DNA of 57,927 nucleotides from Spirochaetota bacterium. GTDB taxonomy: Bacteria; Spirochaetota; UBA12135; COTS27; CBDBHE01. Numbering within the stretch: position 1 is the first letter of the stretch; the number at the start of each line of letters is the position of its first letter. Under the pieces are notes generated by a model. The model made no database searches. It was not told where the DNA came from and saw nothing but the letters and a program-made list of their open reading frames with translations. The translations under genes and the position numbers were made by a program. Below, one piece after another: positions 5,947 to 53,847 of the stretch. The DNA is taken from the NCBI GenBank assembly GCA_965205605.1, contig CBDBHE010000004.1, forward strand, positions 1-57,927, read 5' to 3'.

Positions 5947-6984
5947 TCAAATCATCTGAAGCTTAATTAAAGAACTTTTATAAAGAAGATACACATAATT
6001 TAAACAAATTAAAGCAGCTAAAAATTGATGCGAAACGGCTATAATAAGATGATTATTTGTAACAATCGTTAAGATACCGAAAACAGTTTGAACTAAAATA
6101 AAGATGGTTAATAAGATAATAGCAAAAGTTAAATCAAAAGAGGAGGGGATTCGTTTCTTTGAAAATAAAAAAAGACAACAATAAAAGCAAGAAAACAATA
6201 AAAAAAATAATCCTAAAAATCGGTGAATAAAGTGAATCATAATAGGATTTTTAATCAAATTGAACACGGGATTATTTAAAGCAAAAATGCCTTGTGGGAT
6301 CCATTGCCCATTCATTTTTGGAAAAGTATGACTAATGAGCCCTGCTTTTAATCCAGCCATCATTGTTCCAAAAAAAAGTTGTAAAATAAGAAGAACTCCT
6401 AAAAAAATAAATATCTTTGAAAAAGGAAATTTTTTTTTAATAAGTTTTTTATTTGTGTAACTTAAGCAAAGAAGAAAAGAAAATGATAAAAAAATAATCG
6501 CTAAAAAGAAATGTAAAGAAAGTCTATAATGACTTACTTTTGGGGTGTTCACAAGCCCACTTTTTACCATATACCAACCAATAATTCCTTGAAAACAAAC
6601 TAGAAAAAATAAAATTGTGAAAAATTGATTTTCTTTTTTTGAATTTTTTCTTTTCCAAAAAAAATATAAAAAAGGAAAAAGTAAAAATAAACCTATAAAA
6701 CGACCTAGCATTCGATGAGAGTATTCCATAAAAAAAATAAATTGAAATTGATTCATTGAAATATAAGAATTGATTATTTTTCCTTCTGGAGATTGTTTAT
6801 AATCGTCAAAGGTTTTAATCCAATGTTGGTTACTTAAAGGGGGTATTATTCCTCGTACAGGTTTCCAATAAGTCATTGAGAGCCCAGAGTCTGTTAATCT
6901 TGTTAACCCACCTATAATTATAATGAAGAGAGTTAGGATGGTTAATGACAAAAGCCAATAAAATTTGATTTTTTGATAATACAT
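5947..6984 (-). CDS. ctaA: Heme A synthase (COX15/CtaA)
   Basis: GGLTRLTDSGLSM, EYSHRMLGR, GWYMVKSGL, HYRLSLH, HFIHR motifs; multiple TM helices. Confidence 0.93.
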   Translation of the reverse strand: MYYQKIKFYWLLSLTILTLFIIIIGGLTRLTDSGLSMTYWKPVRGIIPPLSNQHWIKTFDDYKQSPEGKIINSYISMNQFQFIFFMEYSHRMLGRFIGLFLLFPFLYFFWKRKNSKKENQFFTILFFLVCFQGIIGWYMVKSGLVNTPKVSHYRLSLHFFLAIIFLSFSFLLCLSYTNKKLIKKKFPFSKIFIFLGVLLILQLFFGTMMAGLKAGLISHTFPKMNGQWIPQGIFALNNPVFNLIKNPIMIHFIHRFLGLFFLLFSCFYCCLFLFSKKRIPSSFDLTFAIILLTIFILVQTVFGILTIVTNNHLIIAVSHQFLAALICLNYVYLLYKSSLIKLQMI

Positions 6985-20539: not shown

Positions 20540-21283
20540 AAAATTCTAATATAATCATAACATCAAATTTTTAGTTACAAAAGAAGAAGCTTACTATTCT
20601 AATAACAAATTTTCATAAAAAAAATCTGAAAAAACAAATTGAAATTTTAATTTTCTCTTCATTTAACAAAGATTCTGTAAGATAAAAATCGTCAGCTATA
20701 ATAAAAATCTTAAGAATAAAGAAATTGCTAAAAATAAGCCCAAGTATTTACTACAAAACGACATTAAAAATTATTGACAAAGTCTACTAAAAAAACTCCC
20801 TTCAATAAGAAAAATTCCTAACCTCTCTAAATTTAAGTGCTCTACAATATAATCTTTAATTTAGCCGAATAGATGAGGAGTGGAAAGTGACAAAATTAAT
20901 TGAAAAATTAGAAAGACTCATTTTTATTTTATGAATTATTTTAGGGGTTTTTGGTTTTTTTTCTTTTATTAGGAAGAAAGATTGGAAAATCAAAACAATA
21001 AAACAAGCAAGCAAAAAAACCACTGCACTTAAGTAAGTAAAAAGTAAAGCAAGAATAACTGAGATGAAAAAATTAAAGTCATTGGAAAAGAAGGAATGAA
21101 ATAGAGTTAAAAGTAGAGTGGTATGAGGAAATAGGTATAAAATTGTTTTAATACGGTGGTACTGCCAAGATAGGCATATTTTTCTATAGATGTTATTCTG
21201 TTTTAGAAGAACAAATATTTAAACATCTTAATAGAGTTTAATGTTAGAATACCCTATATTTTTATTAAAATTAGGAGCTTACT

Positions 21284-23854
21284 ATGTCAATGAGATTTTT
21301 TTTAACCACATCGTGTGTGAAATACATACCTAAATATATTTTATTTATATCTATATCTGTTTTAATATTGACTACGTTAGGAGTATGTAAAAATGAAACA
21401 ACTTCAAAGCTCAAGTCAAAACAAATAGCTATCGAATCTCTAAGAAAACATTTCTCCAAGAATCGTCACAGAGGGCATCAATTAAAAAGATATAAATTAC
21501 CCCTTGATAAGTACATCAAATTATTAGACTCCAATGGAGAGTTTACAGATCTAAAACAAGAATTAAATGAAATTAGAAAAAAAAAATTACATTTAAATAA
21601 ATATGGAATCTCTCAGAAAAAAGTATCTAAGGTAAACACAATTGCTTTTAATCGTTTATGGAAGATTGCTGAGAGTATGCGAGGAAATAAAGATAGCAAT
21701 CTTATTAAAAATTCTGTTTTTATAAAACTGTGTAAAGGAATAATTCTATATGGAAATCTAGAATTAAGTCGTGCAAATGTATCAGGGGGACGATTTCACC
21801 CATCTTGTTTTGCGATTCCCACGGCTGCTATTAATATTTATTTTTCTCTTTTTGATATGATGAACGCTGTAGAAACTAAAAAACAGAAGAGTGAAAGATT
21901 AGTAGAAATAAATGATGTATTAAAAAGAGTGGGGATGCAGTCTTGGACTCAGCCTTATCGTAAAGATAAAACAGATTTAGATGTGGTACAAGTAGATCGT
22001 TTTAGAGGTCATGTTTGGTGGGTAGGGGGTAATGCAATTAGTTATCGCTCTGTACTCCCAGCTTCTGTGATGATGAGCTCTATTAAAATGATCGATGTGT
22101 TAGCTAAAGTCTATTATGGCTCTTTAAGTGTGGTGTCACAAAATACTTATGACAAAGCTTTTTGGGTAGAAGGGTGTACAGCAGATGGTGCTGGATGGGG
22201 ACATGGCAAACAATGTTTGGTATGGGGATATCCTGCTGATGGACTTCTTAGTGCATTAAAATCAATAAAAACATTAAAAGAGACTCCTTGGGGAGCGACT
22301 TTAACAGAAGATAATAAAGAAACAATTTTTAACTACATTAGAGGGTCATCTTGGTATTATTATAAAGGATTAAGGATTCCTGCTACAGGTAGAGGTAGTA
22401 TGGGATACAAAACGAATAAAACAAAACCTAAAACTCTCTCCCTTGTAAAAATACTCAAAAACAATTGGTTTGATTTTTTGACATCTAGCCAAAAAAAAGA
22501 GATAAAAGCATTAGAAACCAATATGAAAAATGAACGTATGCGTATGCTTGGTTTTCCTCAAGGGATGTACAACGGGACCCGTTGGTTTTACAATAATGAT
22601 AATTTGGTAAAGAAAAACGATAATTATCATATTTATGTCAGTATGGCATCAGTACGTTGTGATGGCATTGAAAGTGCCTACGTTATGGCCGATGGATATA
22701 ACTTTTATACCTGCGATGGGATGACGCTTTATCAAAGAGAAGGAAACGAATATAGTCAAGCCATGGGTGGATGGAATCTGACCGCTATTCCAGGTGTGAC
22801 AAGTAGACAGGGAGAAGATAAGCTAAAGCCAATTGTAAATTGGAGAGGGTATTGTAGTAAACACAATTATGCTGGAGCTGCTACAAGTGGTAAGGAAAAC
22901 GCTGTCTCTGGTTTTCAGTTTGAAAAATTAAATGCTTCTCAAAAAAAGAATGTGAATGATAGAGAGGGGTTGAGTAATGATGTTGAAATTTTATATGGTG
23001 TATCAGCTCATAAGTTTACTATGATGGCAGGAGACTACATGTTATCTCTAGGGTCAGGTATTAATAATTTAAAACAAGGTATTGAAGGAGATATATGGAC
23101 GACTGTTGACCAAACTTTATGGCAAAATTCGGTGAAAGTACTTGGAGAAGATTCTTTACAGAAGAGTTATTCTCTTGGTAAAAATAAAAGAATTGTCTTG
23201 AAAAAAGCTAGTGAAGGAGTCGTTAAAGATAGAGAAATATTATGGGCTTTTCAAAAAAATGGTTTTGCTTATGGGGTCCTTCCTTCTCAAACAACAGGTG
23301 AAGTTGTTTTAACATTACAAAATCGTAAGACAAAATGGAAAAAATTGAATTATTCCAATAAAAAGAAAAAAGATCTTCCTAAGAAAGTAAACATATTTCA
23401 GTTACACATCAACCATGGGAAAAAAGTTAAGGATGATCGTTATGGGTATATTACTTACTGCGGTACTGATACGGGTAAAATAGCTTTTAATAAAAATCCT
23501 TTTCTTGTTATAGAAAATACCACTAATATTCAGGCTGCACAAACTACAGATGGCTCCGTTATAGGAGTTTCTTTTTACAATAATAAAAAAACACTCAACG
23601 CAAAAGACTGGTCTATGTCTGTGAGTGTTCCTTGTGTGCTACTTTTAGAAAAAGAAAAATCTGGCTATAGATTGACAGTTACAGACCCTAAGCTTAATAA
23701 TAATTGTAAAAAGATAATTGTTAAAACAACATTAAAACTAAAAGAGGGGGCATCGGTAAAAAAAAAGGGGAAATGGAATGTTATCAAAGTTGATATGAAA
23801 GTAGATCAACAATGTGGTAAGCCCCAAAGTATTTTACTTGTAGATAATAAATAA
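21284..23854 (+). CDS. Polysaccharide lyase family 8 (chondroitin AC/hyaluronate lyase-like), secreted
   Basis: EGCTADGAGWGHG...WGY catalytic region, DGMTLYQREGNEY, WNLTAIPGVT, WTTVDQT, INHG...YGY, C-terminal LTVTDP; N-terminal signal. Confidence 0.85.
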   Translation: MSMRFFLTTSCVKYIPKYILFISISVLILTTLGVCKNETTSKLKSKQIAIESLRKHFSKNRHRGHQLKRYKLPLDKYIKLLDSNGEFTDLKQELNEIRKKKLHLNKYGISQKKVSKVNTIAFNRLWKIAESMRGNKDSNLIKNSVFIKLCKGIILYGNLELSRANVSGGRFHPSCFAIPTAAINIYFSLFDMMNAVETKKQKSERLVEINDVLKRVGMQSWTQPYRKDKTDLDVVQVDRFRGHVWWVGGNAISYRSVLPASVMMSSIKMIDVLAKVYYGSLSVVSQNTYDKAFWVEGCTADGAGWGHGKQCLVWGYPADGLLSALKSIKTLKETPWGATLTEDNKETIFNYIRGSSWYYYKGLRIPATGRGSMGYKTNKTKPKTLSLVKILKNNWFDFLTSSQKKEIKALETNMKNERMRMLGFPQGMYNGTRWFYNNDNLVKKNDNYHIYVSMASVRCDGIESAYVMADGYNFYTCDGMTLYQREGNEYSQAMGGWNLTAIPGVTSRQGEDKLKPIVNWRGYCSKHNYAGAATSGKENAVSGFQFEKLNASQKKNVNDREGLSNDVEILYGVSAHKFTMMAGDYMLSLGSGINNLKQGIEGDIWTTVDQTLWQNSVKVLGEDSLQKSYSLGKNKRIVLKKASEGVVKDREILWAFQKNGFAYGVLPSQTTGEVVLTLQNRKTKWKKLNYSNKKKKDLPKKVNIFQLHINHGKKVKDDRYGYITYCGTDTGKIAFNKNPFLVIENTTNIQAAQTTDGSVIGVSFYNNKKTLNAKDWSMSVSVPCVLLLEKEKSGYRLTVTDPKLNNNCKKIIVKTTLKLKEGASVKKKGKWNVIKVDMKVDQQCGKPQSILLVDNK

Positions 23855-24199
23855 CTATTCAATAATGGAGTTTATCGCTGATAAGCTTTGAAATCCGTTG
23901 AAGTAAGCACAAGTCACCATGTAGTTAGTGCTACTGACAAGTAACATGATCACTGAAGCAATGTATTCAGCAGGTGGGTTAAATCGTGGTAGTCCTTGTA
24001 AATCCATCGATGCGAAGATGAACTTCTTGATGATGTCGTCAACTCGAGCTCTGTCTTGAGCTATGAATGGGACTGATGTCTGAATGAAGTTGTAGTCGTC
24101 TTCGGTTATTCCGTAATGACTTAAGTCTTGAACGCCTGATGTGATTTTGATTTTTTAAATATCGAGAATAGCCTCTATTCGTAGGTCTTGGTCTTTCAT
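23855..24199 (-). pseudogene. Microviridae external scaffolding protein D homologue, nonsense codon at position 15, C-terminus short
   Basis: AGGAG SD (24206-24210), ATG 24199; reads MKDQDLRIEAILDI*KIKITSGVQDLSHYGITEDDYNFIQTSVPFIAQDRARVDDIIKKFIFASMDLQGLPRFNPPAEYIASVIMLLVSSTNYMVTCAYFNGFQSLSAINSIIE*; matches phiX174 D blocks TEDDFDF, IATDRSR, LDFVGYPRFPAPVEFIAAVI (recalled from memory). Confidence 0.85.
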
Positions 24200-24280
24200 T
24201 TTTTTCTCCTAATTATTTTACTTAGAAGAAAAAATTCACAAACTACCCTGAAGTTAACATAATAGGTATTATGGGAAGTA
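24145..24280. repeat. Left arm of perfect 136-bp inverted repeat
   Basis: Exact reverse complement of 24993-25128 by direct reading. Confidence 0.97.
24252..24279 (-). other. dif-like XerC/XerD recombination site (left copy)
   Basis: Minus strand ACTTCCCATAA-TACCTA-TTATGTTAACT; XerD arm 10/11 to E. coli TTATGTTAAAT, XerC arm 9/11 to B. subtilis ACTTCCTAGAA, 6-bp spacer. Confidence 0.9.
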
Positions 24281-24646
24281 CGCAATAAAGACACAGTCGG
24301 CATAGAAACAATCGGTTACGGCAGAAACTTAAGAGACAGAGGCATCACAGACAACGAAGCAGAATACTTACTACAAAACGACATCGAAGACCATAAACAA
24401 AGACTACTAGAAAAAAAACCCTGGATACGAGAAATACCATCAATACCCAGACGATGGGTACTATACAACATGGCATTCAACTTAGGAGTTAATGGACTAC
24501 TACAATTCAAAAACACCTTATCACTCATCAAAAAAAAACAATACAAACAAGCATCAAAATCGATGCTAAAATCAAAATGGGCAAAGCAAGTAGGCAAACG
24601 AGCCACTACCCTAGCCCACCAAATGAAAACAGGAGAATGGAAATGA
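24281..24646 (+). pseudogene. Phage lysozyme (GH24/T4-like endolysin), 5'-truncated
   Basis: Reads KDTVGIETIGYGRNLRDRGITDNEAEYLLQNDI...VLYNMAFNLGVNGLLQFKNTL...ASKSMLKSKWAKQVGKRATTLAHQMKTGEWK*; no start codon, and the N-terminal (H)EG catalytic Glu segment is replaced by the dif site. Confidence 0.9.
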
Positions 24647-24924
24647 AAAAATTAATAATCATGATGTTGCTATTATTCAATCTAGCCTTTAGTTACGAGG
24701 TATTATACTTTATTCGTTTTACAGATAAATATAATAGTCTTGATAATAATAAAATTACTGAAGTTAGAAATGGGATTGAGATTTATAACCTTTTAAATAT
24801 AGAAAAGATTATAAAAAAGAAGAAAAAACAAGGTTATCGAGTGGTACAATTTTGTCCTGTAGTGTTTGTAGAAAAAGCGGAGATTTTTGTTTTACTAGAA
24901 AAAACAGAAAATAAAAAAAAGTAG
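24643..24924 (+). CDS. Small secreted hypothetical protein, 93 aa
   Basis: AGGAG SD at 24631-24635, ATGA overlap with lysozyme stop, signal peptide MKKLIIMMLLLFNLAFS. Confidence 0.75.
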   Translation: MKKLIIMMLLLFNLAFSYEVLYFIRFTDKYNSLDNNKITEVRNGIEIYNLLNIEKIIKKKKKQGYRVVQFCPVVFVEKAEIFVLLEKTENKKK

Positions 24925-24953
24925 TTGATAAAAAATAAAAAATGGACTATAAA
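24925..24953 (+). promoter_or_regulatory. Putative sigma70 promoter pointing through the right dif site into the gene D stub
   Basis: TTGATA-N17-TATAAA; weak evidence in AT-rich DNA. Confidence 0.5.
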
Positions 24954-24992
24954 TAGATATAAATTTATATAAAATTACCTTAGAAATAAGTT

Positions 24993-25128
24993 TACTTCCC
25001 ATAATACCTATTATGTTAACTTCAGGGTAGTTTGTGAATTTTTTCTTCTAAGTAAAATAATTAGGAGAAAAAAATGAAAGACCAAGACCTACGAATAGAG
25101 GCTATTCTCGATATTTAAAAAATCAAAA
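24993..25128. repeat. Right arm of perfect 136-bp inverted repeat (dif + SD + first 18 codons of gene D)
   Basis: Exact reverse complement of 24145-24280; ATG at 25074, TAA at 25116-25118. Confidence 0.97.
24994..25021 (+). other. dif-like XerC/XerD recombination site (right copy)
   Basis: ACTTCCCATAA-TACCTA-TTATGTTAACT. Confidence 0.9.
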
Positions 25129-25262
25129 AGCATGGATATTTCATAAATATATTGTATTATCTTAACACTAGTTAAAAAAAAATTTACGACCTCACGCTTT
25201 ATAATAGATTATTATTCTTTAAATTTTAATTATTAGTTTTAAAACACCTGTAATAGAAAAAA

Positions 25263-26372
25263 ATGAAATTAAAAGAGAAAATATTAGTAATCTCTCCTTT
25301 TACAAGAGACATTGAATACATTCGATTTATTTTAGAGCCCAACTATCAAATTTTTGAAGGGAAAGAATACAAGCAAGTCAGCACTTTATTAAAAATTAGC
25401 AATGCTAAATTACTCATTATTATTATGATGGGATTTGAGACAAATGAAGATGTTAAATTAATCAATCAAATTAAAAAAGAAAATAATTCTTTAAGCATTG
25501 CTATGATTTTTGAAAATAGCGAGAAACGTTCAGAAGTATTTATACAAGATATAGATGCTTACTTAATTAAGCCTTTTTTTAAAAAAGAAATTGAACTGAT
25601 GGTTGATTGTGTTTTTAAAAAAATAGAAAAACACAATCAATTATTAAATGTTAATCATAAGCTTTATCAAGAAAAAGAAAACTTAAAAAAATATTTTTCA
25701 GAAGAAGTGATCAAAATGATTGAAAAAAAAAAATCAATGAATTCATTAGAGAGTTCTTATTTAAAAGTGACTGCCCTTTTTGTTGATATAAGAAATTTTA
25801 CTAGTTTGGGAGAAAATTTAGGTCCGAAAAATCTTGCTAAGGTTTTAAATCTTATTTTTACAGATATGATCGATATTATTTTTTCACATAAAGGATCCAT
25901 TAATAAAATTATAGGAGATGCTTTATTAACAACTTTTGGCTGCCCTTTTCCGTCAGATGAAGATAGTTTTAATGCTATTAAATGTGCCTTATCATTAATT
26001 AATACTGTTTTGGTATTTAATAAAGTGCCACCTGAATTTTTAAAAAATAAAATAGAAATCGGAATTGGGCTTGCAACGGGGATGGTTTTCGCTGGTAATA
26101 TTGGATCATATCGCCGAATGGAATATACTGTTATTGGTGATATTGTTAATTTAGCTAGTCGGCTTCAAAATTTAACTAAAGAAGTTAATGGCAATATTAT
26201 TATCGATAAAAAAACATATGAAGAAAATAAAAATAAAATTGATGTAACGCTTTCTGAGCGTAATATAATTGAAGGTAAAACAGAGAAATTAAATATTTAT
26301 ATATTAAGGGGTATAAAAGAAGAAAAAAAAAATAATCAAATCGCTCAAACCAAACAAAATTGGAGACTTTAA
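25263..26372 (+). CDS. Class III adenylate/guanylate cyclase with degenerate N-terminal receiver domain
   Basis: LFVDIRNFT, KIIGDA, GNIGS...EYTVIGDIVNLASRLQ; REC-like N-terminus ending AYLIKPF. Confidence 0.92.
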   Translation: MKLKEKILVISPFTRDIEYIRFILEPNYQIFEGKEYKQVSTLLKISNAKLLIIIMMGFETNEDVKLINQIKKENNSLSIAMIFENSEKRSEVFIQDIDAYLIKPFFKKEIELMVDCVFKKIEKHNQLLNVNHKLYQEKENLKKYFSEEVIKMIEKKKSMNSLESSYLKVTALFVDIRNFTSLGENLGPKNLAKVLNLIFTDMIDIIFSHKGSINKIIGDALLTTFGCPFPSDEDSFNAIKCALSLINTVLVFNKVPPEFLKNKIEIGIGLATGMVFAGNIGSYRRMEYTVIGDIVNLASRLQNLTKEVNGNIIIDKKTYEENKNKIDVTLSERNIIEGKTEKLNIYILRGIKEEKKNNQIAQTKQNWRL

Positions 26373-50772: not shown

Positions 50773-53700
50773 CTATTCACAAAAAACATCAACCGAAAAA
50801 GAACCTTCATTTTCTATTTTAAGTAAAAAAATATTTTCTTTTTTTTGTAAAGAAATTTTATCCTTAGATTGGATTTGAGCAACGGAAACTCCTTTTGGAA
50901 GCTTAAAGGCAAGATAGCCTGCATTATTTTTTGTTGAACTCAAACGAAGCTTAGTTGGTTTTTTATCTGACCAATCTAAATCAACAATGACATTTCCTCT
51001 CGTCTTAAATCCTTTAAAAGATCCTTTAGATAACGAACTTGATAAAGCAGGTAAAACATCTAAAAGATGAATCTTGTTTCCTTCTACCGATATCAATTGA
51101 TGAGATTGTAAAAGCATTTCTCCCATTCCAGCGATAGCTCCAAAATTACCATCGATTTGAAAAGGGGGATGATCGTCAAATAAATTAGGTAAGGTTGATT
51201 TTTTTAAAATTAAGATTAAATTATTATAAGATTTTTCTGCTGATTTAAGACGTGCCCAAAAATTAATAATCCAAGCCCTACTCCAACCCGTATGCCCTCC
51301 TCCATGAGCCAAACGTGTTTCAAGTGATTTTCTAGCTGCCTCTACATACCCTTCCCTATCAAAAAAGTGAGCCGCTGGATGTAAAGCATATAGATGAGAC
51401 ACATGACGATGTCCTAGGTTAGCTTCTTTATAATCTTCATACCATTCCATAACACGACCATCTTCACCTATTTTTGGAAAAGCTAATTTTTGTAAAGCTT
51501 TTTTGACTTCTTTTACAGTGGCATCATTTTCTTTTTCCAAAACAGCTGCTGCATTAATAAAGTTTTCAAATGTATCCAAAGTAATTAACTGGCTCATCGA
51601 AGCCCCAGGAGAAATATTCATTTTTTTATTATTTGGAAGAACAAATTTATTCTCAGGACTATTTGAAAGTCTTGCTACAAGTTCTCCTGTTTTAGGGTGA
51701 ACGATTAAATAATCTAATAAAAACTTAGAGGCTCCTTTTAAAATAGGAAAAGCTCTTTTTCTCAAAAACTCTTTATCTTGAGTATACTGATAATATTCCC
51801 AATATTGCCTAGTGGCCCAAGCTCCCCCATACTGAAAAAAGGCATACCCAGGGCGCCCTTGTGCTATAGCGTAAGCCCAAATATCAGTGGCCTGATGAGC
51901 CATCCATCCTCTAGCGTTATAATAATACTTAGCTACTTTTGCTCCTCGTTTACTCACTCGATCGATTAAATCAAAATACGGCAAATGACATTCTGCTAAT
52001 TGAAACATTTGAGCAGGCCAGTAGTTCATTTGAAGATTAACGTTAATATGATAATCACTATTCCACTGACCTTTTACTAAATTGAAACACCAAATTCCTT
52101 GTAGATTAGCCGGTTGGGTGTTAGGTCTAGAAGAGGCAATGAGTAAATAACGACCATAATGAAAATACAGAGCCAATAAATCAGGATCTGCTTTTCCTTG
52201 TTTGAGTAATGAAAGACGTTTGTCCGTTGGTTTTTTTCTAGCTTCATGTCCCCCAAAATCCAATTTAACTCGCTTAAACAATTTAAAATGAGAACCAATC
52301 CCCTTTAACTTTACTTTTTCAAAAGACTTACTTAAAACATGCTTCATGTCTTTTCCAGCTTTTCTAGCTGGAAGAGTAAAATTAGAATTAAACAAAGAAA
52401 GGGCTTTATAAAAAAGACTCTTAACCCAGTTTTCTTTATAAAAATCAGTCCCCGCTGTTAAATATATAAAAACTTTATCAGCATTTTTAATTTCAAGATA
52501 ATCTTTCTTCTTAACAATATTTCCTGAAACGGTTTTGACTTTAAGACGTGTGTTAAAACGAACTCCTTTCTTAAATTGATACTTTTTATCACTTTTCATC
52601 TTTGCTCTTTTCCAGTTTCCACTTAGAGCAAGAGCTTGTTTTTTATTTCCTTGAGGGTAAATTTCACAAGCTTCTTTTCCAGATTGAAATTTTGTTTCAT
52701 ACCCTGCGCCAAAAATATAACCAGCATGAAAAGTCACTAACGTTAAAACAGCTTTACCCTTTTTAACCAATTTAGCAGGAATATCATAAAGCCTCTTTTC
52801 TCCAGGTAAAATACTCACCCCTACTTTTTGTCCATTAAACCAAGTTTCATCACTTCCATTTAATTCCCCTAAAAAAAGCTTGAGATCTTTCCCTTCCCAA
52901 GAATCAGGAATAACAATCCTTTTTCGATACCACTTAATCCCTGTAAAACTAACTTTTTCCTCTCCCCACTTATACGGAAGGGTTATTTCATCCCATTTAC
53001 TATCATTAAAAGAAGGGAGGTAATATTCTTTTTGCCAACCTGATTGATCAGCCCTTTTTATTTTACCCCAATACTCTTTTTCAAAAGCAACTCCTTTAAG
53101 TTTAATTTTTTCAACTAATTGCTTTCTATTATATTTAAAGTTAGGATGTATTATCGCTCTTCTAGCTAAACGTTCATCGTAATTTTTCAAATGATAAGCC
53201 CGAGCATTTAAAACAATGCTATCTTTTTCATATTTGATTTTAGCTCCTACATAACGATTAAGTTTAAGCCTGGTATTAATGGCTCCTTTTGCACTAGAAG
53301 ATAGCGTCATCATTAGCACTTGATCTACTTCACTAACAAAAACGTCTCTTGTGTATCGTATCCCTTCATGGTCAAAAACTGTCTGAGCAATTCCTGTTTC
53401 TAAATCAAGAGATCTTTTATAATTCTTTACCTTTAATTCATCAATCTTCATAAAATAAAGATCCAAATCAGCCATCGTTTGATAACTTCTTACCAAACTT
53501 TTAGCTAAAAACTCTTTTCCAATAAGCTTTTCAGCTTCAAAAGCTTTTCCTTCAAAAAACATTTTTTCAGCTTTAGAATAAATTTGATAAGCATTTTTTT
53601 TCAAAGGTTGGTCTGCTTTACTACCAGCCCAAATCGTATCTTCATTTAATTGAACGATCTCACGCTTAATGCCTCCATGCACCATCCCTCCTATGCGTCC

Positions 53701-53847
53701 ATTTCCAATAGGAAGTGCCTCATCCCAATTCTTAGCTGGTTTGTCATACCAAAGCTTCCATTTGCCAGTAAGGCTTAAATCTTCAGAAAATAAACAAATA
53801 GATAAAAAAGAAAAAATAAAAGAAAAAATAAAACGATTTTGTTTCAT
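50773..53847 (-). CDS. Glycoside hydrolase family 95 (alpha-L-fucosidase-like), secreted, with inserted beta-sandwich domain
   Basis: WDEALPIGNGRIG, YGRYLLIASSR, PANLQGIW, YHINVNLQMNYW, HRHVSHLYALHP, HPPFQIDGNFG. Confidence 0.93.
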   Translation of the reverse strand: MKQNRFIFSFIFSFLSICLFSEDLSLTGKWKLWYDKPAKNWDEALPIGNGRIGGMVHGGIKREIVQLNEDTIWAGSKADQPLKKNAYQIYSKAEKMFFEGKAFEAEKLIGKEFLAKSLVRSYQTMADLDLYFMKIDELKVKNYKRSLDLETGIAQTVFDHEGIRYTRDVFVSEVDQVLMMTLSSSAKGAINTRLKLNRYVGAKIKYEKDSIVLNARAYHLKNYDERLARRAIIHPNFKYNRKQLVEKIKLKGVAFEKEYWGKIKRADQSGWQKEYYLPSFNDSKWDEITLPYKWGEEKVSFTGIKWYRKRIVIPDSWEGKDLKLFLGELNGSDETWFNGQKVGVSILPGEKRLYDIPAKLVKKGKAVLTLVTFHAGYIFGAGYETKFQSGKEACEIYPQGNKKQALALSGNWKRAKMKSDKKYQFKKGVRFNTRLKVKTVSGNIVKKKDYLEIKNADKVFIYLTAGTDFYKENWVKSLFYKALSLFNSNFTLPARKAGKDMKHVLSKSFEKVKLKGIGSHFKLFKRVKLDFGGHEARKKPTDKRLSLLKQGKADPDLLALYFHYGRYLLIASSRPNTQPANLQGIWCFNLVKGQWNSDYHINVNLQMNYWPAQMFQLAECHLPYFDLIDRVSKRGAKVAKYYYNARGWMAHQATDIWAYAIAQGRPGYAFFQYGGAWATRQYWEYYQYTQDKEFLRKRAFPILKGASKFLLDYLIVHPKTGELVARLSNSPENKFVLPNNKKMNISPGASMSQLITLDTFENFINAAAVLEKENDATVKEVKKALQKLAFPKIGEDGRVMEWYEDYKEANLGHRHVSHLYALHPAAHFFDREGYVEAARKSLETRLAHGGGHTGWSRAWIINFWARLKSAEKSYNNLILILKKSTLPNLFDDHPPFQIDGNFGAIAGMGEMLLQSHQLISVEGNKIHLLDVLPALSSSLSKGSFKGFKTRGNVIVDLDWSDKKPTKLRLSSTKNNAGYLAFKLPKGVSVAQIQSKDKISLQKKENIFLLKIENEGSFSVDVFCE

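Follow-up and report, generated by a model that had tools for sequence, protein, structure and literature searches.

Introduction

Among the closest described counterparts of the locus reported here are the Enterogokushovirus prophages, integrase-less microviruses that, according to the available part of Kirchberger and Ochman (2020, PMC7062461), reside next to the 28-bp chromosomal dif site by means of a phage dif motif located in a non-coding region. The same portion of that paper gives experimental proof that integration of the enterobacterial gokushoviruses needs the host genes xerC and xerD as well as the phage dif motif, and it describes their complete prophages as lying between two differing dif motifs, one bacterial and the other phage-derived. 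Gokushoviruses lack protein D. Here we describe, in a 57,927-nt stretch of DNA from a Spirochaetota bacterium (contig CBDBHE010000004.1 of assembly GCA_965205605.1; the whole stretch is hereafter called the window), a truncated homologue of gene D, which codes for the microvirus external scaffolding protein D (gpD), beside a dif site. This relic is probably the remnant of a Xer/dif-integrated, pequenovirus-like, D-bearing microvirus (Family 1/Suborder I) in a new host phylum. Compared with the gokushovirus prophages, its dif sites are inverted and identical, and nearly all of the prophage is gone.

Suborder I/Family 1 comprises the Bullavirinae, the 'Klebsiella prophages' and pequenovirus metagenome-assembled genomes (MAGs), with the external scaffolding protein as its hallmark, in the excerpted text of Kirchberger et al. 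(2022, PMC9239249). The phiX-like phages are described as lytic in the available part of PMC7062461, and the records of Bullavirinae list enterobacterial hosts. Like the relic, the Klebsiella prophages belong to a D-bearing family and are integrated in a bacterial genome, their host being a gammaproteobacterium (PMC9239249, same excerpt). Temperate D-bearing microviruses are therefore already in print as far as that excerpt goes, which corrects an earlier reading of the window made from the letters alone (the sequence-only reading), whose author knew of no described example. Pequenoviruses, an uncultured sister group of the Bullavirinae, resemble the relic in carrying a gpD homologue, but they are free circular sediment genomes of 5.7-6.2 kb with unknown hosts, whereas the relic is a truncated gene D within a spirochaete chromosome; no integration is reported in the pequenovirus records seen. 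In one of them, KP087947, gene D comes after a non-coding gap behind the replication gene. Microviruses have so far been linked to Spirochaetes and several other phyla only through single contigs binned into fragmented MAGs (available part of PMC9239249), and microvirus-related proviruses have been recorded in Bacteroidetes (PMC3091885, in excerpt). Non-exhaustive keyword searches of the open-access literature brought to light neither a D-bearing microvirus located at dif nor one residing in the chromosome of a spirochaete.

A pseudogene of microvirus gene D beside a dif site

The relic and its immediate surroundings consist of the following features, in window coordinates.

23855..24199, minus strand: gpD pseudogene of 114 codons, ATG at 24199-24197 and TAG at 23857-23855, identified with Pfam, PDB, PHROG and an AlphaFold2 model
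24206..24210, minus strand: AGGAG Shine-Dalgarno (SD) motif 6 nt ahead of the gpD start codon, recognised by inspection
24252..24279, plus strand: dif site, copy 1, 28 nt (11-nt arm, 6-nt centre, 11-nt arm), 52 nt upstream of the gpD ATG
24994..25021, minus strand: copy 2 of the dif site, with the same sequence as copy 1 in inverted orientation

The sequence-only reading had already reported the minus-strand frame, its SD sequence, a dif site about 50 nt upstream and a lysozyme fragment nearby, all of which are where it had placed them, and had aligned the frame with phiX174 protein D. That alignment proved right. With X in place of its internal stop, the frame matches entries of three independent libraries. 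Its match to the Pfam family gpD (PF02925) has E=1.2e-13, scores 51.7 bits where 25 suffice, and extends from position 4 to 101 of the 141-position profile; a gpD search of the whole genome returned the same single place. PHROG 1386 ('head morphogenesis') matches it with E=1e-25, and phmmer aligned its residues 4-106 with the chains of phiX174 gpD in the PDB structures 1tx9 and 1al0 (E=4.8e-12). As this last match begins at residue 4, the 14 codons preceding an in-frame TAA at 24157-24155 (codon 15) belong to the gene. An AlphaFold2 model of the 99 residues after the stop, computed from an alignment of 81 gpD homologues, had a mean predicted local distance difference test score (pLDDT) of 87.4. 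When this model was compared with the PDB using Foldseek, the top 7 matches were gpD chains (probability 1.00, TMq 0.66-0.75) and the eighth had E=2.5, a ranking to be read with the composition of the alignment in mind. The frame is thus a real homologue of the microvirus external scaffolding protein D and, by virtue of this homology, of microviral origin.

The gene is dead. Besides the nonsense codon, the frame is about 55 C-terminal residues short compared with 13 aligned relatives, so that it is a pseudogene rather than an intact full-length frame of ~150-170 aa, and its 3′ end abuts the stop codon (23852-23854) of a polysaccharide lyase (PL8) gene. Codon usage and base composition both mark the fragment as foreign: the share of C-ending codons in six C/T-ending codon pairs is 0.72 in gpD and 0.88 in the adjacent lysozyme frame, compared with 0.13-0.18 in eight host genes, and local GC content at the relic reaches 0.39-0.43 versus ~0.27. 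These figures bear out the statement in the sequence-only reading that the two frames share C-ending codons avoided by the host.

In a quick tree the relic falls on the side of the pequenoviruses

A word-index search found no close homologue of the gpD frame. A HMMER scan of 1.84 billion representatives yielded 386 cluster representatives at E<=1e-3, mostly 155-170 aa long, the best of which (P0001) shows 44% identity to the relic over 168 aa (E=2.6e-19). Of the top 150 library matches, 58 share 85% or more of their residues with phiX174 D, and odd lengths (up to 318 aa) are frequent among these; the two whose sequences were read, P0002 and P0004, are fused or duplicated and resemble sequencing spike-in chimeras in public assemblies. 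GenBank phages contributed 555 matching records, headed by the Eel River basin pequenovirus KP087947 (46% identity, E=2e-18), while the Bullavirinae ID11, G4 and phiX174 are 33-35% identical to the relic. IMG/VR provided seven gpD relatives, all on 5.2-6.1 kb contigs, and a Pfam scan of two of these found A, D, F, G and H in one and A, D and F in the other. IMG/VR scans with P0001 and with a narrow alignment gave no matches, nor did scans of GTDB genomes with two narrow peptide patterns, whose strictness makes this weak evidence of absence.

A quick maximum-likelihood tree was built from 96 rows (82 of the top 150 library matches and 14 others), after the 58 phiX-like sequences, and 10 more whose length fell outside 130-200 aa, had been set aside. 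The relic grouped with P0001 and P0003 with a Shimodaira-Hasegawa-like approximate likelihood ratio (SH-aLRT) support of 90, on an 80-row side that also holds three pequenoviruses, whereas phiX174, G4 and Pectobacterium phage Mimer fell on the other, 16-row side; the split between the two sides had a support of just 84. Descent from a D-bearing microvirus is well supported. The label 'phiX174-like' given by the sequence-only reading is too narrow: protein D of phiX174 and other Bullavirinae (PDB 1AL0, 1CD3, 1TX9) shares the family and the predicted fold with the relic at ~35% identity, and the nearest neighbours are unnamed metagenome proteins rather than named pequenoviruses.

The 28-nt site is the dif of the lineage and lies at the terminus

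The 28-mer occurs twice in the assembly, and nothing else comes within seven mismatches of it. Two matches to the dif core pattern were found in the window against 0.16 expected, a count reached in 2 of 100 shuffles. We searched nine genomes of the order for the two 11-nt arms, leaving the 6 nt between them free and tolerating <=3 mismatches. Five of the eight relatives proved to have exactly one site each (G001 with 0 mismatches, G005, G007 and G006 with 1 each, G003 with 2), and G002, G004 and G008 to have none; the reversed pattern used as a control gave 0 in all nine. The site of G001 is intergenic and its arms are identical to those of dif copy 1, while the 6-nt centres vary among genomes. 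Since the arms are single-copy in these relatives and the control found nothing, the site is, by sequence comparison, the chromosomal dif of the lineage and not a phage-specific sequence. The two copies being identical, with the arms of the relatives' dif, no separate phage att site can be distinguished, and the suggestion that the phage brought its own dif-like att site finds no footing; the claim that the relic sits on real dif sites holds.

A second candidate in G001 (C1:117988-118007), which matches 19 of 20 positions of the dif core, was rejected as a coincidence because it lies within the YceG/MltG gene, at a conserved Y-N-T-Y coding stretch. Such a coding match could mislead dif searches in AT-rich genomes.

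The strand tests used to locate the replication terminus were trained on the other contigs only. The 12 most strand-skewed 8-mers occur 15 times on the plus and 7 times on the minus strand up to 22160, and 7 and 27 times, respectively, from 25343 onwards. A discriminant based on third-codon-position skew (1060 training open reading frames (ORFs), accuracy 0.91) called the minus strand leading in 17/17 ORFs right of 27.5 kb. Together, the skewed 8-mers and the third-position skew place a switch of polarity at ~24-27 kb, where dif sits. In 20-kb loci examined in four relatives, raw GC skew reverses at dif in three. On the other contigs of the genome, cumulative GC skew is monotonic, with one turning point on C7, the largest contig; this minimum, at ~460108, likely marks the region of the replication origin. 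No synteny around dif was detected between the present genome and four relatives, apart from one unrelated weak match.

Exactly two genes for PF00589 tyrosine recombinases were found in the genome, with XerD (303 bits) and XerC (269 bits) as their best models, and no recombinase is encoded in or near the relic. The locus therefore shows two traits of integrative mobile elements exploiting Xer (IMEX), namely adjacency to the chromosomal dif and a host with XerC and XerD in the absence of an integrase of the element. Coincidence is unlikely: by a rough estimate, a foreign fragment would come to rest 52 nt away from the only dif in 1.7 Mb of genome with a probability of ~1e-4.

The host is a spirochaete

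The source assembly measures 1.69 Mb in 8 contigs, is 91% complete and is the single representative of its family among the genomes compared. Its ClpX carried no taxonomic signal (the best match was 63% identical and the few named matches were Clostridia MAGs), which is why FlaA (PF04620), a family that we take to be specific to the periplasmic flagella of spirochaetes, was chosen as host marker. Three FlaA genes are present, compared with none in 14 control genomes, which supports a spirochaete as the host of the relic, as the sequence-only reading had proposed. Two of the three lie within 5 kb of the skew minimum on C7.

An inverted repeat carries dif and the start of gene D

Both dif copies are part of an inverted repeat.

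24145..24280, minus strand: left arm, 136 nt, with dif, the 52-nt leader including the SD sequence, and gpD codons 1-18 including the TAA
24993..25128, plus strand: right arm, with the second dif, the SD sequence and gpD codons 1-18 (ATG 25074-25076, TAA 25116-25118)

The 136-nt arms are 100% complementary and 712 nt apart, and apart from this repeat the region is not duplicated anywhere else in the genome. On its inner side the repeat ends 1 nt past dif. At its outer boundary the left arm continues into the rest of gene D, and the right arm meets AT-rich host intergenic DNA upstream of a cyclase gene (25263). Because the TAA is present in both arms, the duplication, or a conversion that homogenised the arms, postdates the death of gene D. 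The segment singled out by the sequence-only reading ends at 25128, the very end of the right arm; the repeat itself and the loss of the ~55 residues are new here. The right arm, a former gene D leader with its SD sequence, faces a cyclase-CheY-CheA operon 135 nt downstream. Promoter-like sites between 23700 and 25400 gave no signal (10 versus 7.6±2.5 in shuffles), the hexamers in the right arm included.

A chimeric join, produced by co-assembly of a free microvirus or by amplification fold-back, could create a gpD fragment or a repeat of this kind. We examined Logan unitigs from two runs (X1 and X2) of one sample. A 7618-nt unitig runs from PL8 into gpD, covering 23000-24174 with 0 differences and including 290 nt of unique gpD sequence, so that gpD and PL8 are physically linked. 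Separate unitigs correspond to the middle (772 nt, 24251-25022), to the repeat (136 nt) and to the right flank (742 nt, 25099-25840), and their graph permits only the order left flank, repeat, middle, repeat, right flank. The depth is low (~4-6), the two runs are possibly the assembly's own source, and a k=31 graph cannot set the orientation of the 712-nt middle; the low depth and the shared source make this a sign of consistency and no independent proof. Truncated and interrupted by a nonsense codon, the gene is not that of a live phage, and ~35% identity to phiX174 argues against spike-in carry-over. Taken together, an assembly artefact is very improbable. A third run, X3, with the same species label but from another study, holds next to none of the stretch and is evidence neither way.

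Extra low-depth contigs in run X2 differ from the window across the 3′ part of PL8 (23000-23753), by 12 positions in 177 nt for example, and point to a diverged co-resident strain. A further low-depth contig, in X1 and X2, matches part of the gpD relic (~23909-23974). Beyond 23974 it diverges, and it may represent either a related sequence from the sample or a short match due to chance.

The repeat also invites comparison with the CTXphi type of IMEX, in which a folded single strand with two inverted dif-like sites integrates via the host Xer recombinases. Like the relic, CTXphi is associated with single-stranded phage DNA, host Xer and an inverted dif-like pair near one prophage end; its sites, however, are ~90 nt apart and imperfectly paired, whereas the arms of the relic measure 136 nt, pair perfectly, have 712 nt between them and take in a portion of a dead gene. 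There is a slim chance that the dif-bearing repeat is no accident, being either a CTXphi-like integration fossil, in which a hairpin-folded microvirus single strand presented a duplex dif to XerCD, or a working invertible segment at the terminus, driven by Xer or RecA, in which the 712-nt lysozyme/orf93 cassette flips beside the cyclase-chemotaxis operon. A CTXphi-like fossil would be the first such case in Microviridae. We regard the inverted duplication of dif as an unexplained extra, a small curiosity of its own.

The lysozyme appears to be debris of another element

Between and beside the arms lie further fragments.

24281..24646, plus strand: 5′-truncated phage lysozyme (GH24/T4 type), recognised by PF00959 and PHROGs, with foreign codon usage
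24643..24924, plus strand: orf93, whose start overlaps the lysozyme stop, with a hydrophobic N-terminus and host-like codon usage
20665..21082, plus strand: older, heavily decayed relic of the lysozyme and the beginning of orf93, disrupted by stops and frameshifts and located upstream of PL8, 3.2 kb away

The frame 24266-24646 matches PF00959 (E=6.5e-9, profile positions 12-119 of 125) and lacks a start codon and 17-20 N-terminal residues, including a conserved H-E-G stretch of its relatives that presumably holds the catalytic Glu of T4-type lysozymes. Its truncation point lies 1 nt from the end of dif. Homologues of 135-145 aa are up to 67% identical (P0151); used alone as a query against IMG/VR, the lysozyme gave no match. 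No family in Pfam, PHROGs or NCBIfam matches orf93, and its Atlas matches (<=0.84) are leads only. The older relic has 63-74% nucleotide identity and matches a hidden Markov model (HMM) of 50 full-length homologues with E=5.6e-9; PL8 is thus bracketed by two lysozyme relics, the older one lying between the trigger-factor gene and PL8.

The sequence-only reading had credited the microvirus with an endolysin. On such a view, a temperate D-bearing microvirus-like phage carried both the lysozyme and orf93, the plus-strand succession of lysozyme, orf93, spacer, dif, SD and gene D (24281-25128) being a preserved stretch of its circular genome that spans attP, or else the junction of tandem prophages, and the left arm an inverted copy. 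At the right arm, all four pieces do run in the same direction on the plus strand, the C-ending bias is common to gpD and the lysozyme, which look unameliorated and both touch dif, and the closest lysozyme homologues reside on short contigs of 2.5-4.1 kb. The distribution of the lysozyme argues the other way. It was detected by tblastn in none of the seven gpD-bearing IMG/VR contigs, was not annotated in any of six GenBank D-bearing genomes viewed, and had no microvirus gene beside it at any of 80 metagenome loci; its 25 best GenBank phage matches are records of 32-50 kb (tailed phages), and one metagenome relative has genes for an integrase and for a CII-like regulator next to it. The share of third-position T is 0.05 in the lysozyme versus 0.23 in gpD, orf93 has host-like codons, and the older relic, which has no gpD, indicates that the lysozyme module has its own, older history at the locus. 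A single composite element is therefore unlikely in our view, and the lysozyme would rather be debris of another mobile element, a tailed-phage-type endolysin of separate origin.

Weighing Xer-mediated integration

If the relic stems from a Xer/dif-integrated microvirus, the replicative form of the phage would have recombined with the host chromosome at dif, in the replication terminus, with the host XerC/XerD pair as catalyst, as in the enterobacterial gokushoviruses, and with a phage att site ~50 nt upstream of gene D. During decay of the prophage, gene D would have acquired its premature stop, and a deletion reaching to the PL8 stop codon would have removed all sequence 3′ of codon 114 (the remainder of D together with F, G, H and A). 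The 136-nt block of dif, leader and 18 D codons would then have been copied in inverted orientation, or homogenised by gene conversion, leaving copies that flank a 712-nt segment with the other element's debris, a 5′-truncated endolysin and a small ORF.

Several observations weigh against this reading. The two dif copies are inverted and identical instead of forming the two direct dif-like sites (attL and attR) of an IMEX, and neither has clearly host DNA on its outer side, so that an extra rearrangement must be assumed. A scan of 13 free D-bearing microvirus genomes found no convincing dif-like site: the best candidate, in KP087957, matches 13/14 specified positions, a score reached in 4/100 shuffles and not significant over 13 tests, and none stands out in the three Bullavirinae scanned (phage Mimer, G4 and phiX174). 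The two Xer-like proteins score below the NCBIfam equivalog cut-offs (329.6 and 335). Left of 26.4 kb the third-position discriminant gave a mixed signal (14/23 ORFs plus, 9/23 minus), and raw GC skew on the window contig is noisy, without the pattern of the other contigs, which is why third-position skew and skewed words were used. Searches of the 91%-complete genome brought up no microvirus gene besides gpD: a tblastn search with 185 stop-to-stop frames of eight D-bearing microviruses matched the gpD place alone, and PF02305 (Phage_F) was absent from a genome scan that, matching no control genome either, is weak evidence. The sequence-only reading had looked to such genes for corroboration; just one microviral gene fragment remains. 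Finally, among 401 genomes of the phylum, gpD turned up in the present one and in no other.

The candidate in KP087957, a pequenovirus, is a match to a generic dif core at ~6065-6083 and across the record start, just before the replication gene, and is the sole att candidate seen in a free D-bearing genome.

Foreign DNA tends to accumulate in the terminus region of chromosomes, and stray microvirus DNA might have been caught there by illegitimate recombination, its proximity to dif being coincidental or due to later rearrangement. That just a 345-nt fragment is left, that the dif copies are inverted and not direct, that the region holds other debris (the two lysozyme relics and the G+C-richer PL8) and that free D-bearing microviruses yielded no dif-like site would all fit such an event. 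It accounts poorly for the 5′ end of gene D, which with its SD sequence and 52-nt leader points exactly at dif, and for a repeat boundary 1 nt beyond dif, a geometry of site-specific exchange and not of random capture; moreover, Xer/dif integration is proven for other microviruses in the available part of PMC7062461. We hold stray capture to be improbable and retain Xer-mediated integration as the better account. The proposal of a D-bearing microvirus integrated in a spirochaete lineage is thus supported as regards microviral origin, dif and host, but not as regards an att site of its own and an endolysin.

Neighbouring genes

The window also contains genes for trigger factor, ClpX, IleRS, PNPase and GluRS as well as those of the chemotaxis operon; it has no tRNA gene, and no Rfam family matched between 20 and 27 kb. 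The PL8 polysaccharide lyase gene (21284-23854) has a lipoprotein-like N-terminus and uses codons as host genes do, while its GC locally reaches 0.41. Its overall GC of 0.33 compares with 0.25-0.29 for the cyclase, CheY, CheA, trigger factor, ClpX and IleRS genes and equals that of the PNPase gene and of a GH95 fucosidase-type gene farther along (50773-53847). PL8 may be an old acquisition at the terminus itself, and together with GH95 it suggests a glycan-degrading, host-associated lifestyle.

Implications

Microviruses are among the most abundant phages in metagenomes, and most of their lineages have no known host. The D-bearing branch has so far consisted of enterobacterial isolates, Klebsiella prophages and host-less sediment and metagenome genomes. 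The relic joins a known kind, microvirus remnants at dif, and is notable for its host phylum and its viral branch. As it is a fossil and not a live prophage, its evidence on lifestyle is indirect; it suggests that Xer/dif lysogeny extends beyond the gokushoviruses to the D-bearing branch. Embedded between housekeeping-type spirochaete genes, it provides a chromosomally anchored host assignment for a pequenovirus-like lineage.

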